Assembly (NCBI RefSeq): GCF_003019035.1
Contig: NZ_CP027447.1
Reading direction: 5' to 3' (one strand)
Source of the DNA: Escherichia coli
Lineage (GTDB): Bacteria > Pseudomonadota > Gammaproteobacteria > Enterobacterales > Enterobacteriaceae
Length of the DNA: 64,000 nucleotides
Shown here in pieces: positions 55,774-61,255 of this stretch. The notes under the pieces are model-generated. The model saw only the letters and a list, made by a program, of their open reading frames with translations. It did not search any database and was not told the origin of the DNA. Both the position numbers and the translations under genes were made by a program. Each line of letters begins with the position of its first letter. Position 1 is the first letter of the stretch.

Positions 55774-55934
55774 GCCCACCTGTACGTGCCAACTTCCAGT
55801 GCTAATGGTATAGTTTGAAAATAAATAACCGCATCTAACCAGATTGCTGACAAACCTGTTTATGAGCGATTCAGTCACTGTTTTTCTCCCCAGTCCAGGA
55901 AGGCAATAGGGCGGGGTAATGGCTACAGTCATTT

Positions 55935-55973
55935 CCCCTCACCCTAACCCTCTCCCCAAAGGGGCGAGGGGAC
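55935..55973. repeat. GC-rich palindromic intergenic repeat
   Basis: CCCCTCACCCTAACCCTCTCCCCAAAGGGGCGAGGGGAC upstream of uxuR. Confidence 0.55.
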
Positions 55974-56026
55974 TGAACGTGCCCTTTACAGGATTTGTTA
56001 CCAGTCTCATCAAATGGATATTACTT

Positions 56027-56800
56027 ATGAAATCTGTCACCTCTGCGCAAAGACCTTACCAGGAAGTCGGGGCGATGATCCGCGATCTGATCATAAAGAC
56101 GCCGTACAATCCTGGCGAACGGCTGCCGCCGGAGCGTGAAATTGCAGAAATGCTTGATGTCACGCGGACGGTGGTACGTGAAGCGCTGATCATGCTGGAG
56201 ATCAAAGGGCTGGTGGAAGTGCGCCGGGGTGCCGGTATTTATGTTCTTGATAGCTCAGACAGCCAGAACACAGACAGTCCGGATGCCAACGTCTGTAATG
56301 ATGCCGGTCCTTTTGAGCTGTTACAGGCGCGTCAGTTACTGGAAAGTAACATCGCCGAGTTTGCCGCCCTGCAGGCTACCCGCGAAGATATCGTCAAAAT
56401 GCGTCAGGCATTGCAACTGGAAGAGCGTGAACTGGCTTCCAGCGCGCCGGGCAGCAGCGAAAGCGGTGATATGCAGTTCCATCTCGCCATTGCCGAAGCA
56501 ACGCATAACAGCATGCTGGTGGAGTTATTCCGTCAGTCCTGGCAGTGGCGGGAAAACAATCCAATGTGGATCCAATTGCACAGCCATCTGGATGACAGCC
56601 TGTATCGCAAAGAGTGGTTGGGCGATCACAAACAGATCCTCGCCGCGTTAATCAAAAAAGATGCCCGAGCGGCGAAGCTGGCAATGTGGCAGCATCTGGA
56701 AAACGTTAAGCAACGTCTGCTGGAATTCTCGAACGTTGACGATATTTATTTTGACGGCTATCTGTTTGATTCATGGCCGCTGGATAAAGTCGACGCCTGA
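56027..56800 (+). CDS. uxuR: GntR-family repressor of the uxu regulon
   Basis: 257-aa MKSVTSAQRPYQEVGAMIRDLI... with N-terminal GntR HTH and FadR-type C-domain; the track ORF is artificially extended through the upstream repeat. Confidence 0.9.
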   Translation: MKSVTSAQRPYQEVGAMIRDLIIKTPYNPGERLPPEREIAEMLDVTRTVVREALIMLEIKGLVEVRRGAGIYVLDSSDSQNTDSPDANVCNDAGPFELLQARQLLESNIAEFAALQATREDIVKMRQALQLEERELASSAPGSSESGDMQFHLAIAEATHNSMLVELFRQSWQWRENNPMWIQLHSHLDDSLYRKEWLGDHKQILAALIKKDARAAKLAMWQHLENVKQRLLEFSNVDDIYFDGYLFDSWPLDKVDA

Positions 56801-56940: not shown

Positions 56941-57771
56941 TCATTTACCAATATAATTCCATTCACCATTTTTTAATTCAAACAGTTCTGGAAGAGATGA
57001 CGGTTGCAGAGTCATGCGTTTGAGTGGCGCATCTTCATCACCGGGGATAACTTTATATCCCATTTTTGCATGGATCTCCGCGGTACCGGGATAGGCTTCT
57101 ATACCAATTATTGGGTCATTTCCCATCTCAATATTAGCATTAAGTAATGCGGCAACGGCGAATCCGGAAGAATTTGCTACCCCTGTTACCGTCATTATCT
57201 GATCAATATAGATATCAATCCTTGGCTGTTCATTGGTCCATCTTTTTGCCTGAGAAGCTGGAAGGGTTGAAATATATCCTATCGTGGTTCCGGCATAACC
57301 AGGAACATTGCAGCCAGGGCCTAATGTTATTTCATGCACAGTATAGTCCTCTACAGGATCGGAGGGGCTCTTCATAAATAAATTTAGTTGTAATCCTTCC
57401 GCTAACTCTGTGGCAGCATGCGCCTTTTTACATATACCACCATATATTTCGTCTAAAGCTGAGGTGATTTTCAAGTTTCGATAGAGCATACGTCCTGTTG
57501 TTGTAATACCATTGAATTCTCTGCATGTTTCTGTCACATAATTAAATGGCCAGGACTGTTTGCTAATATTAAGTTTTCTAATTTCGACAACACTTTTTCC
57601 ATCGTAATTATGGTTATTGCCACGAGCAAGAGGCAGAAGATAGATATTTTCCGTATCCATGCGTGCATATTCATATTCACGTGTTAACTTATTGTCGACT
57701 CTTGGGTGATGAAGGAAGTGATTATTTGTATTGAATTGGTTAATAGCGGCATTGCTTAATGGCATAGACAT
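56941..57771 (-). CDS. yjiC: Uncharacterised protein YjiC
   Basis: 276-aa ORF in the conserved position between uxuR and iraD. Confidence 0.75.
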   Translation of the reverse strand: MSMPLSNAAINQFNTNNHFLHHPRVDNKLTREYEYARMDTENIYLLPLARGNNHNYDGKSVVEIRKLNISKQSWPFNYVTETCREFNGITTTGRMLYRNLKITSALDEIYGGICKKAHAATELAEGLQLNLFMKSPSDPVEDYTVHEITLGPGCNVPGYAGTTIGYISTLPASQAKRWTNEQPRIDIYIDQIMTVTGVANSSGFAVAALLNANIEMGNDPIIGIEAYPGTAEIHAKMGYKVIPGDEDAPLKRMTLQPSSLPELFELKNGEWNYIGK

Positions 57772-58433
57772 AATAGTTACCTTTTATGAGTATTTCACTG
57801 ATGTTTAGAAAAATAGATAAATTTTTCTGTAGTAAAAAAGAAGTAAAAAAATGACATGCATGTTTCTGTTGTAGTGATATCAACTCTACACGGTGATATT
57901 AAAGGGTAGGAAACACTCTAAAGTATCAAAAAACGCTCATTTGAAATTATTTTCATGCAATTAAAAAGCATATCTTATTACTAATTGGAATTTGATGTTG
58001 CTATATTTATGTCTATATTAATAATGCCTATGAATGGTATTTTTGATGTATTTGATATGTTATCAATTTATATTATTTACAAACTAATTGTTTCAAGTAA
58101 TACATGGCTGATTATGCGGAAATAAATAATTTCCCACCGGAATTAAGTAGCGGCGGTGACAAGTATTTTCATCTACATAACTATTCGGAATATTCAGAAT
58201 ATACTAGCAGTTTTTTTTTGAGTTTGATGATTTTTATCAAATCATGACTTTTTTCCTGAAAAGTCAGTAGATATTCATAGGCAAGTAAGGTTTTATACTT
58301 TGCTGACAGGATTCAGGCCTGTCTCAGACTGACATGGATGTAATGAACAAAAGGGAATGGCTATGGAAAATGAGCATCAATACAGTGGTGCCCGGTGTTC
58401 AGGGCAAGCCGCATATGTTGCTAAACGTCAGGA

Positions 58434-58826
58434 GTGCGCAAAATGATGCGCCAATCACTTCAGGCTGTTTTACCTGAAATTTCAGGCAATAAAACGTCAT
58501 CGCTGCGTAAATCGGTATGCAGCGATCTCCTCACACTTTTTAATTCTCCTCATTCGGCATTACCGTCATTACTTGTTTCAGGCATGCCCGAGTGGCAAGT
58601 GCATAACCAGAGCGACAAACATCTTCAGAGCTGGTATTGCCGTCAGCTGCGTTCTGCACTGTTATTTCATGAGCCACGGATTGCGGCGTTGCAGGTCAAT
58701 TTGAAAGAAGCGTACTGCCACACGCTGGCGATCAGCCTTGAGATAATGCTGTACCACGACGATGAACCGCTAACGTTTGATCTGGTCTGGCAGAAGGGGA
58801 GTTGGCATCGCACGATGCCGCAGTAA
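58434..58826 (+). CDS. iraD: Anti-adaptor protein IraD (RssB inhibitor stabilising RpoS)
   Basis: [25 protein letters not shown]...; track ORF starts at GTG 58434, first ATG at 58443 preceded by AGGAG. Confidence 0.85.
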
Positions 58827-58835
58827 ATGACGGGA

Positions 58836-58864
58836 AACGCGATACGCGCAAGACGTATCGCGTT
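58836..58864. terminator. Hairpin between convergent iraD and the dhaM-like gene (possible bidirectional terminator)
   Basis: AACGCGATACG-cgcaaga-CGTATCGCGTT: perfect 11-bp stem in the 47-bp gap; no strong T-run. Confidence 0.45.
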
Positions 58865-58873
58865 AGGTCACAA

Positions 58874-61255
58874 TTAGTGGGAGGTTCTGATTGCTGCTTT
58901 CAAGGCCGGAAGCCGGGACGGACTGGCACTGAGCTTATCAATCCCCATGGTGAGCAGTCGTGCTGTTTGCTGGGTATCTCCAGCCATTTCGCCGCACATA
59001 CTGACCGGAATTTCATTATTACGTCCGGCCTGACACACCATAGCAATAGCGTTAATCACCGCGTCATTACGATAATCGACCAGTTCCGCGACGGTGCTAT
59101 TTCCTCTGTCTGCCGCCATAATATATTGCGTCAGATCGTTGGTGCCGATGGAAAAGAAATCGACTTCACTGGCTAATTTTTCTGCAATCATGACTGCAGC
59201 AGGAACCTCAATCATAATTCCCAGCGCCGGAAGATTTTCTGCAGTAAGTCCCAGCAGTTTTGCCTGCGTTTGTATCAGCGTTTTGACGGCGTTGACCTCC
59301 TCGAGCGTTGAAACCATCGGCAGCATAATTTGCAGCGTTGGGTATTCTTTCCCGGCCCGGAGAAGTGCGCGTAATTGCGGAATAAATATTTGCGGATGCG
59401 CCAGGCACAACCGGATACCGCGAAGTCCCAGGAACGGGTTGTCCTCTGCGGGTAAAGGGTACGAAGGTAATGGCTTGTCACCGCCAATATCCAGAGTGCG
59501 GATGGTGACTGGTTTATCGCCAAAAGCCTGAGCAACAGAACAATACACGCGAAACTGCTCTTCTTCATCGGGTAATGTTGCAGACTCATGGAATAAAAAC
59601 TCTGTGCGCAGTAAACCCACGCCCTCAGCCCCGTGAGATAGCGCAGCCTCAATATCTTGCAGGTCACCAATATTCGCCAGCACGCTGATTTTTCGCCCAC
59701 CTTGCGTGACAGCGGGCAGCATGGCATCAGCTAACTGACGATCCCTTTGTTGCCGCCATGCTTCGGCGCGTTGCAGTAAATCCAGGCGGGTGACCTCATC
59801 CGGCTGTAGCCACAAACGGCCTGTTTCACCATCAAGAATGACTGTGTCGTTATCGCGGACGTTTTGCGGGGTAATAGCTGCCTTCACAATGGCAGGAATA
59901 CCCATTGCTCTGGCAAGGATCGCTGTATGTGAAGTTGTTCCGCCATTATGAAGACAAATGCCAAGAATGTGTGCTTTATTCAGGCTGGTTATCTGTGATG
60001 GCAACAGATCGTTGGCTAACAAAATGCAGGGCGCGGTAGTAATAAAGTGTTGTTCACTTACCCCGCAAAGCTGGTTCAGTACCTGACGTGTAAGGTCACG
60101 GATATCTGCCTCGCGTTCACGTAAATACAGTGTTTCCGCCTGACAATATTGCTCTGCTAATGCCTGCATGACTTCTAACCATGCGAATTCCGCCTGTTTG
60201 CCCTTTGCCAGACGTTGCTGTAATTGCCGGTTAATCTTTGGATCTTCAAGCATCATTTTATGGGCGGCAAAAATATCGCCTTCAGGGCCTGCCGCTTTAT
60301 CGGCAAGTTCACAAACAACAATGTCGATAGCAGACTCGATTCGCGACAGCTCTTCTTGCGGAGAATCGACGGTGCGCTGCGTAATTTCTGGTCGTTCGCA
60401 GGTAAACCATTTAACAGGACCAATAGCGATACCATTTTGTACTGACAAGCCTGATATTGCGCCATCAACAGGGGCGCTGACCACCGGCGTTTCCGTTAGC
60501 GGAATCTCTGAAGAAGCGAGCAGGTGAGCTTCACCAAAATGATTTTTCGCCAACGTTTCAATTGCCTTGAGAGCGTCACTGGCATCGGTGCCTTCGGCCT
60601 GGAAGATGATTTCATCGCCACAGCGGACGCCCAGCATTGCCAGTTCGTTGAGACTGCGGGTGCTGGCGCGTTTATCGCCTTTGATGACGATAATGTTTGC
60701 CGAAAATTGTGCGGATACTTTCAGGATGCTGGCTGCCGGACGAGCATGAATGCCGTGGGGATTACGTATCGTCCAGCAAAAAGTTTGCCATTCATCGCAA
60801 TGATTGATTGGTGATATTGCTGGAATAACCTCGCCTGCAGTTGAGGATGGCGTGAGTTGCTGCTGTTTAGCACACAGCGCAAGATCCACTTCAGCGATAA
60901 TCTCCGTCACCGAAAGCCCCGCTGCGGCAGACGTTACCGCTGACATGGCACCTTCCACTACAGGGGCGGCGAGCAGATAAATTGCACTTCTTTGCTCTTC
61001 AGAAAGCAGCTCCAGCGCCATCTCGGTACTAAGCAGCGCACTGCCCATATCCATGAGTACCAGAACGCCATCCGGTGACCAGACCGATTCAATCGCAGAC
61101 ATAATGGCAATAGCATCAGTGCCAATCGGATTTTGCGGATCATCAATACCTGCAGCAATGGCCAGAGGAACGTCCCCTCCAGACATCTGTAGTGCTAATT
61201 CCTCAACCCCCTGGGCGAGACGTAGACTATGAGAAACAATAACAATGGCAACCAT
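58874..61255 (-). CDS. DhaM-like PTS multiphosphoryl transfer protein: EIIA(Man-type)-HPr-complete Enzyme I fusion
   Basis: N-terminal MVAIVIVSHS (DhaM EIIA-type), HPr-like HGIHARPAA, Enzyme I phospho-His region GGTTSHTAILARAMGIPAIV and PEP-binding domain motifs IGTNDLTQY and CGEMAGD. Confidence 0.85.
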   Translation of the reverse strand: MVAIVIVSHSLRLAQGVEELALQMSGGDVPLAIAAGIDDPQNPIGTDAIAIMSAIESVWSPDGVLVLMDMGSALLSTEMALELLSEEQRSAIYLLAAPVVEGAMSAVTSAAAGLSVTEIIAEVDLALCAKQQQLTPSSTAGEVIPAISPINHCDEWQTFCWTIRNPHGIHARPAASILKVSAQFSANIIVIKGDKRASTRSLNELAMLGVRCGDEIIFQAEGTDASDALKAIETLAKNHFGEAHLLASSEIPLTETPVVSAPVDGAISGLSVQNGIAIGPVKWFTCERPEITQRTVDSPQEELSRIESAIDIVVCELADKAAGPEGDIFAAHKMMLEDPKINRQLQQRLAKGKQAEFAWLEVMQALAEQYCQAETLYLREREADIRDLTRQVLNQLCGVSEQHFITTAPCILLANDLLPSQITSLNKAHILGICLHNGGTTSHTAILARAMGIPAIVKAAITPQNVRDNDTVILDGETGRLWLQPDEVTRLDLLQRAEAWRQQRDRQLADAMLPAVTQGGRKISVLANIGDLQDIEAALSHGAEGVGLLRTEFLFHESATLPDEEEQFRVYCSVAQAFGDKPVTIRTLDIGGDKPLPSYPLPAEDNPFLGLRGIRLCLAHPQIFIPQLRALLRAGKEYPTLQIMLPMVSTLEEVNAVKTLIQTQAKLLGLTAENLPALGIMIEVPAAVMIAEKLASEVDFFSIGTNDLTQYIMAADRGNSTVAELVDYRNDAVINAIAMVCQAGRNNEIPVSMCGEMAGDTQQTARLLTMGIDKLSASPSRLPALKAAIRTSH

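Follow-up and report, generated by a model that had tools for sequence, protein, structure and literature searches.

Adjacent palindromes upstream of iraD in Escherichia coli: probable upstream DNA of promoter P2 overlapping a predicted FNR-type site

In the current analysis we have considered two abutting palindromes in the spacer between yjiC and iraD of Escherichia coli, within a window (the whole stretch of DNA that was analysed) of 64,000 nucleotides. On balance we favour the reading that they are upstream regulatory DNA of the iraD promoter P2, comprising an H-NS-masked dyad of the CRP/FNR family centred at about -71.5 and a T-run/A-run dyad at about -50. The positions of the palindromes, the match to a known consensus, the conserved core with its spacing and the published ChIP data are direct observations, and it is on these that the reading is built.

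The palindromes would act as double-stranded DNA just upstream of the P2 core and not as RNA elements. Within palindrome 1, the candidate for a functional element is the dyad ATGAT-N4-ATCAA, of the CRP/FNR family, whose centre is about 71.5 bp upstream of the P2 start. In wild-type laboratory cells H-NS filaments would cover the AT-rich promoter island and the box would be without FNR; removal of H-NS and StpA would make it accessible, and we infer that FNR or a relative could then activate P2 from this box. Palindrome 2 would lie between the activator and the -35 region, in the zone contacted by the C-terminal domain of the RNA polymerase alpha subunit or by a nucleoid protein. The 7-bp symmetry of palindrome 1 arises because ATCA(T) recurs 5 bp downstream in E. 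coli, and this E. coli-specific extension is probably incidental.

Layout of the iraD locus

The window is from Escherichia coli and its layout has been taken from the list of open reading frames and from the RefSeq annotation of near-identical genomes. The features surrounding the palindromes are the following.

55919-56800: uxuR (ORF list and RefSeq annotation)
56941-57771, minus strand: yjiC (ORF list and RefSeq annotation)
57992-58026, plus strand: iraD promoter P1, TTGATG-16 nt-TATATT ending at 58019 (promoter scan), start at 58026
58104-58247, plus strand: ytiD (ORF47), a 47-codon small ORF on the P1 transcript (ORF list; 'protein YtiD' in RefSeq)
58294-58306, plus strand: iraD promoter P2, putative -10 hexamer TATACT at 58294-58299, start at 58305/58306
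58363-58446, plus strand: idlP (ORF27), a leader peptide gene downstream of the palindromes (RefSeq annotation; Park et al. 2017)
58443-58826, plus strand: iraD, the anti-adaptor gene that the palindrome region would control; ATG at 58443 from the RefSeq comparison

The spacer between yjiC and iraD is 671 bp long in the window, with a G+C content of 31.6%. The match of the promoter scan to P1 was found independently of the literature and coincides with the published start at -417 from the iraD ATG (Sass et al. 2021). The start of P2 has been mapped to -137 from the ATG (Sass et al. 2021), and a P2 leader fusion has -138 as its first position (Park et al. 2017). The hexamer TATACT, assigned by reading of the sequence, fits as the -10 element of this promoter. 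A GGA motif is found 3-4 nt past the P2 start, in agreement with the CsrA site BS1, which is located very near the 5' end of the P2 RNA (Park et al. 2017).

By the published start sites both palindromes occupy -79 to -40 of P2 and, within the P1 transcript, +202 to +241. The published P2-only fusions, which start at -234 and -253/-254, include both of them (Park et al. 2017). The preliminary description had placed the palindromes about 180 bp upstream of the iraD start in a long AT-rich leader. The distance is confirmed, as they lie at -216 to -178 from the ATG at 58443; the term leader is appropriate for the P1 RNA, whereas for P2 the same stretch is upstream promoter DNA.

The small ORFs of the spacer have been studied before. 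An ORF47-lacZ fusion is expressed, a start-to-stop mutation of ORF47 leaves iraD expression unaffected, and idlP is translationally coupled to iraD (Park et al. 2017). A paper on a restriction-modification C protein mentions idlP solely as a transposon insertion site. An ORF at 57985-58125, which overlaps the P1 start, contains the published 33-aa YtiB (MPVNGIFDV... in K-12, MPMNGIFDV... in the window); its first ATG at 58024 is upstream of the P1 start at 58026, so that P1 transcripts are limited to a later start codon.

At the extreme 5' end of the P2 transcript the sequence GACAGG-attcagg-CCTGTC (58305-58323) can form a hairpin that includes the GGA of CsrA BS1. The sequences of other Escherichia species differ at this end and could likewise pair into a 5' stem, as in GGAT-cttataa-ATCC and GGCA-aaagcta-TGCC; these pairs do not correspond column by column.

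The iraD gene has 127 codons in the window and 130 in K-12, and the C-terminal end of the 127-aa IraD differs from that of K-12. Downstream of iraD, at 58874-61255 on the minus strand, is an ORF of a 793-aa multidomain PTS/PEP-utilising protein instead of hypT. A locus outside E. coli (L014) has the same layout, with a 127-aa IraD followed by PEP-utiliser genes. These observations suggest that the strain of the window carries a different, possibly recombinant, right-hand junction.

Sequence and chance expectation of the palindromes

Both palindromes are present exactly where they had been reported and adjoin each other, and the second can be extended by one pair.

58227-58245: palindrome 1, ATGATTT-ttatc-AAATCAT, perfect 7-bp arms with a 5-nt spacer, axis at 58236
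58246-58265: palindrome 2 in the form reported, GACTTTT-ttcctg-AAAAGTC
58245-58266: palindrome 2 in full form, TGACTTTT-ttcctg-AAAAGTCA, 8-bp arms, axis at 58255.5, about -50 from the P2 start

As a result of the additional pair, T58245 is common to both palindromes. Palindrome 1 covers the last six codons of ytiD and the first base of its stop, and the two palindromes meet at the TGA (58245-58247). Further partners are available to the left arm of palindrome 1, namely TTTGAT/ATCAAA at 58223-58241 and TGAT-TTTT-ATCA at 58228-58239.

The expectation by chance was derived from 2000 dinucleotide-preserving shuffles of the spacer, counting perfect inverted repeats with arms of at least 7 and loops of at most 8. 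A shuffled spacer has on average 0.72 such repeats and the whole window about one per kb, so either palindrome alone is unremarkable. The spacer holds three (P of three or more = 0.031). Two abutting repeats occur with P = 0.0055, a criterion chosen post hoc, and the abutting pair is mildly unusual when judged in that way.

The third perfect palindrome of the spacer, AGAAAAAT-agataa-ATTTTTCT at 57807-57828, has 8-bp arms and lies 36-57 bp upstream of the start codon of yjiC, on the opposite strand.

A predicted FNR-type site overlapping palindrome 1

The left arm of palindrome 1 together with the first ATCAA comprises a box of a known type.

58227-58240: FNR-type box, ATGAT-TTTT-ATCAA, that is ATGATTTTTATCAA, axis at 58233.5

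Its axis is distinct from that of palindrome 1 (58233.5 vs 58236). In a pattern search, ATGATTTTTATCAA matches the FNR consensus TTGAT-N4-ATCAA (TTGATNNNNATCAA) at 9 of 10 positions with a single mismatch; the match of the box to the CRP consensus is 7/10 in E. coli. Boxes with at most one mismatch to the FNR consensus are found in 11% of the shuffled spacers, and within the 58-bp activator zone in a fraction of about 0.01. The axis of the box is at -71.5 or -72.5 from the P2 start, depending on whether 58305 or 58306 is taken. FNR activator sites are centred at -41.5, -61.5, -71.5 and so on, and -71.5 is a class I position.

The identical ATGATTTTTATCAA is already tabulated as a predicted FNR site of yjiC/iraD, with its centre at 4554800 and a PatSer score of 12.49 (Myers et al. 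2013, PLoS Genet 9:e1003565, Table S6). The site is listed there as H-NS-enriched and without a wild-type FNR ChIP-seq peak. The yjiC/iraD spacer is a published H-NS-bound 'promoter island', and an FNR ChIP-chip peak at yjiC/iraD is confined to the hns stpA mutant, where the value increases from 0.136 to 0.656 (Table S7), though the resolution of ChIP-chip is too coarse to assign this peak to the 14-mer. The sigma-70 peak at 4554880 increases from 96.6 in aerobic to 382.5 in anaerobic cells (Table S2); it is 80 bp downstream of the centre of the box, at about +8 of P2. The aerobic/anaerobic mRNA ratio of yjiD is 0.268 (Table S12). As iraD/yjiD is absent from the operons that differ between the wild type and the fnr mutant (Tables S8 and S10), these data do not tie the anaerobic rise to FNR. 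The same study found 124 of the 187 sites predicted by position weight matrix unbound and counted the iraD site among these 124 'silent' ones; many such predictions may therefore be non-functional. It also states that earlier evidence of FNR regulation exists in EcoCyc (Myers et al. 2013).

The resemblance to an FNR operator at a class I position thus includes a 14-bp dyad near the consensus, a canonical distance from a mapped start, an existing catalogue entry and an FNR ChIP signal at the spacer in the hns stpA mutant. It differs from such an operator in that the box is vacant in the wild type, with no fnr-dependent change of iraD in the data of Myers et al. (2013), in lacking the FNR-specific first T, in having two or three mismatches in several sister species, and in that palindrome 1 as first described is built on another axis than the dyad of the box.

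The locus also shares with H-NS-silenced promoter islands the listing of the spacer as H-NS-bound and the predicted, H-NS-enriched FNR site unmasked in the hns stpA mutant. Unlike typical silent islands, it serves a well-characterised gene driven from two mapped promoters, and instead of being fast-evolving filler its palindrome block is what has been conserved throughout the genus. H-NS control of iraD has reportedly been described by Battesti in 2012.

Conservation within E. coli and between Escherichia species

The spacer, taken as 674 bp, was found in 4903 of 5426 complete genomes, mostly with 95-99% identity to the window. The 50 nt at 58221-58270, which include both palindromes, are identical in 4849 of 4863 E. 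coli genomes, and the next 50 nt, containing the P2 core, in 4861 of 4899 genomes. The 50 nt upstream of the block differ in nearly all genomes because the lineage of the window carries two minority alleles.

Five other Escherichia lineages were obtained from a genome scan with IraD and two more from protein look-ups; two 'divergent' matches (L012, L013) turned out to be E. coli-type sequences with indels and were set aside as uninformative. The identity of the spacer to that of E. coli is about 54% among Escherichia species and 67% in E. albertii. Within it a conserved island extends over about 58172-58281, where 20-nt windows score 0.62-0.86 except for 58202-58221 at 0.49, and 58222-58281 scores 0.64-0.84 between species.

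Palindrome 1 as a whole is not maintained in this comparison, since 2-3 of its 7 pairs are broken, uncompensated, in each other Escherichia species of the alignment (A1). The left arm ATGAT, with its three possible partners in E. coli, retains only one genus-wide: TGA (58228-58230)-N6-TCAA (58237-58240) is invariant across eight Escherichia lineages. In all eight, precisely 53 nt separate the box from the -10 hexamer, with indels occurring further upstream and downstream of the start. Over the full box there is one mismatch to the FNR consensus in E. coli, L014 and L015, two in E. albertii and E69, and three in the E. whittamii clade. In place of the discriminating first T of TTGAT, E. coli has A and one clade has G. 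At the internal pair 58231/58236, T-A is present in E. coli, L014 and L015 and C-G in the E. whittamii clade, with C/A in E. albertii and E69; the double change from T-A to C-G is a single event with C/A intermediates and does not amount to statistical proof.

In at least four lineages (L004, L005, L007, L008), and with the same layout in L014 and L015, uxuR ends about 410 bp before iraD, and yjiC and the distal spacer are absent. These lineages are also without P1 and the small ORFs ytiB, ytiC and ytiD. The absence of the P1 half suggests that P2 and its upstream island are ancestral and that the P1 half, which E. coli and E. albertii share, was inserted later, judging from the layouts compared. 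A ytiD-like ORF was not found in any Escherichia species examined besides E. coli. As ytiD, and mostly yjiC and P1, are missing elsewhere, the conservation of the island is not due to ytiD coding or to the P1 leader.

Outside Escherichia, the genome scan with IraD returned only one contaminated Bacillus contig, a 605-bp contig (L003) labelled Bacillus coahuilensis with an iraD 97% identical, which is almost certainly E. coli contamination of that assembly. The nearest non-Escherichia homologues in a protein search are TssE genes of Citrobacter (L009-L011; 46-52% identity), which lie within type VI secretion operons, flanked by hcp and tssF, and have no promoter of their own. With operon-internal TssE as the closest outside relatives, the orthologous promoter appears confined to Escherichia; this is also consistent with IraD being an orphaned and repurposed TssE/gp25-like protein. 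The conservation across Enterobacteriaceae that had been proposed as a check thus reduces to a comparison among Escherichia, where the block is conserved and the symmetry of palindrome 1 is not.

Palindrome 2 and the sites of other regulators

All lineages retain the core of palindrome 2, C-TTTT/AAAA-G, together with its axis. The right arm is invariant, as is the AGTRGAT.TTC following it, and drift of the left arm has removed the outer pairs. The axis is 22 bp, or about two helical turns, from that of the FNR-type box.

With a T6 run ahead of a run of A4 (A5 in other species), both conserved and situated between -60 and -40 of P2, palindrome 2 bears a likeness to an UP element. UP elements are A/T tracts at -40 to -60 that bind the alpha C-terminal domain, and their SELEX consensus is -59 nnAAAWWTWTTTTnnnAAAnnn -38. 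Palindrome 2 differs in that its T/A tracts are shifted 4-5 bp upstream. Compared by hand in register (58247-58268), about 4 of the 14 specified positions agree with the consensus, which is a poor match.

Two further sites have been proposed in the spacer.

58196-58211: predicted HusR (YnfL) box, CAGAATATACTAGCAG in the window and CAGAATATACTAGCGG in K-12 (HusR gSELEX paper, Table 1)
58361-58369, minus strand: putative DnaA box '-81', TTTTCCATA (Sass et al. 2021), far downstream of the palindromes

The HusR box lies 16 bp upstream of palindrome 1 with no overlap, the CsrA sites are found from around the P2 start (58306) onward, and binding of DnaA at iraD was not detected by ChIP-seq. The DnaA box, the HusR box and CsrA BS1-4 all have coordinates elsewhere, and were discarded as the identity of the palindromes. 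Inspection by eye with the motifs of IHF, Fis, Fur, CRP, NarL, TyrR and Cra, and likewise of ArgR, the marbox, the LysR-type T-N11-A and the H-NS motif, gave none that was convincing or conserved.

The comparison with known regulators proposed at the outset has therefore a mixed outcome, with palindrome 1 overlapping a predicted FNR site and the DnaA, HusR and CsrA sites lying elsewhere. The suggestion of operator sites holds in part: the left arm of palindrome 1 with ATCAA is the catalogued site, but the conserved dyad has a different axis and the outer pairs of palindrome 1 are broken in other Escherichia. For palindrome 2, conservation is restricted to the T-run/A-run core, and no protein has been assigned to it.

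A near-perfect 20-bp palindrome, TATTCGGAATATTCAGAATA at 58182-58201, is made up of two tandem ATTCNGAAT units, and E. albertii is without exactly one 9-bp unit of this repeat. Among the 20-mers of the upstream spacer it shows the highest conservation between Escherichia species (0.86); it is located at -124 to -105 of P2 and overlaps the predicted HusR box. Its core, GGAATATTC, is reminiscent of an RcsB-type box. This palindrome is either excluded from the P2-only fusions of Park et al. or cut by their ends.

The palindromes as RNA

The preliminary description had also considered a structured leader element. In this case the palindromes would fold next to each other as RNA hairpins, at the stop codon of ytiD within the 417-nt leader of P1, affecting ribosome release, processing, stability or read-through to idlP-iraD. 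The stretch is indeed transcribed from P1 and translated as ytiD, and two adjacent hairpins are predicted for the 61-nt RNA (-14.3 kcal/mol, z = -2.95), hairpin 2 alone reaching -7.6 kcal/mol (z = -4.2); in the clade of E69, L014 and L015 the changes in hairpin 1 mostly yield G-U pairs. Hairpin 1, however, is weak, with -2.4 kcal/mol and 12 of 200 shuffles folding equally well, and among seven Escherichia sequences there is no two-sided change in any of the 14 pairs, with the proportion of paired cells (76.5%) equal to the shuffle mean. A scan of 57700-58900 against Rfam at E ≤ 1 gave only a spurious snoRNA match elsewhere. A U-run is absent after either hairpin and a terminator-like site was not found in 57700-58900. 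Abolishing the translation of ORF47 leaves iraD expression unchanged (Park et al. 2017), and species without the yjiC/P1/ytiD part also conserve the block. We consider the RNA reading very unlikely, and the proposal of a structured leader element is not upheld.

Two specific forms of RNA element were rejected in the course of the analysis. An intrinsic terminator of ytiD calls for a G+C-rich stem with a U-run, and GTAGATATTC follows hairpin 2; a riboswitch or attenuator has neither a match in Rfam nor compensatory changes. The known elements of the iraD leader, namely the CsrA sites, the hairpin sequestering the Shine-Dalgarno sequence and the idlP coupling, are on the same P1 transcript, on which the palindromes could fold as well. 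The authenticated CsrA sites and the coupling hairpin are however found from about the P2 start onward, at least 40 nt away, and the palindromes differ from them in being without covariation and Rfam match.

Other readings of the palindromes as DNA

The palindromes might be chance symmetries in AT-rich, horizontally acquired DNA and the FNR match a false positive of the position weight matrix, in which case the block would be kept for generic promoter reasons such as H-NS binding, curvature or RNA polymerase contacts. The frequencies of inverted repeats and of FNR-like boxes in the shuffled spacers are in line with such an origin, as are arms consisting of simple T and A runs, the lack of covarying pairs with paired cells at the shuffle mean, and the silence of the site in the wild type with no fnr-dependent expression change recorded by Myers et al. 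(2013). The rarity of an abutting pair (0.55% of shuffles), the canonical activator distance with invariant spacing to the -10 hexamer in eight lineages, the FNR ChIP signal at the spacer after loss of H-NS and StpA and the far better conservation of the block than of the remaining spacer argue against chance, which we regard as a doubtful though serious contender.

The sites could instead be operators of other dimeric regulators, with CRP or YeiL, the third member of the CRP/FNR family, on TGA-N6-TCA and another protein on palindrome 2, and this could explain why iraD is induced by damage independently of LexA, or why it is induced in stationary phase. The invariant TGA-N6-TCA is the core common to CRP and FNR sites, one clade has a CRP-like GTGA, the axis of the palindrome 2 core is fixed in all lineages, and the HusR, DnaA and CsrA sites map elsewhere, with DnaA binding unseen by ChIP-seq. 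Against it, the CRP consensus is matched poorly in E. coli, the literature searched has no report of CRP, YeiL or another factor binding here, and palindrome 2 fails to keep its outer pairs, which makes this explanation unlikely. It is quite improbable, too, that palindrome 2 is the operator of a further regulator forming a composite switch with the CRP/FNR-family site. If true, the composite switch would make IraD synthesis, and hence the stabilisation of RpoS, respond to oxygen limitation, replication stress or relief from H-NS silencing, and the regulator at palindrome 2 could be the missing factor of an iraD induction that is independent of LexA and, by ChIP-seq, of DnaA.

Implications for iraD regulation

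IraD stabilises the general stress sigma factor RpoS, and the sensing of DNA damage, starvation and oxygen by its promoters is only partly understood. Control of iraD by DnaA is disputed, and SspA and HusR are recent additions to its regulators. The palindromes are promoter-upstream DNA of a known kind and not a new type of element, their key part being tabulated already in a published supplement, and the finding is largely ordinary, mainly explained by known promoter architecture. They can now be placed in the upstream region of P2, overlapping the catalogued, H-NS-masked FNR-type site. As they lie in the sole block of the spacer that is conserved across the genus, they offer a precise and inexpensive target for mutagenesis.
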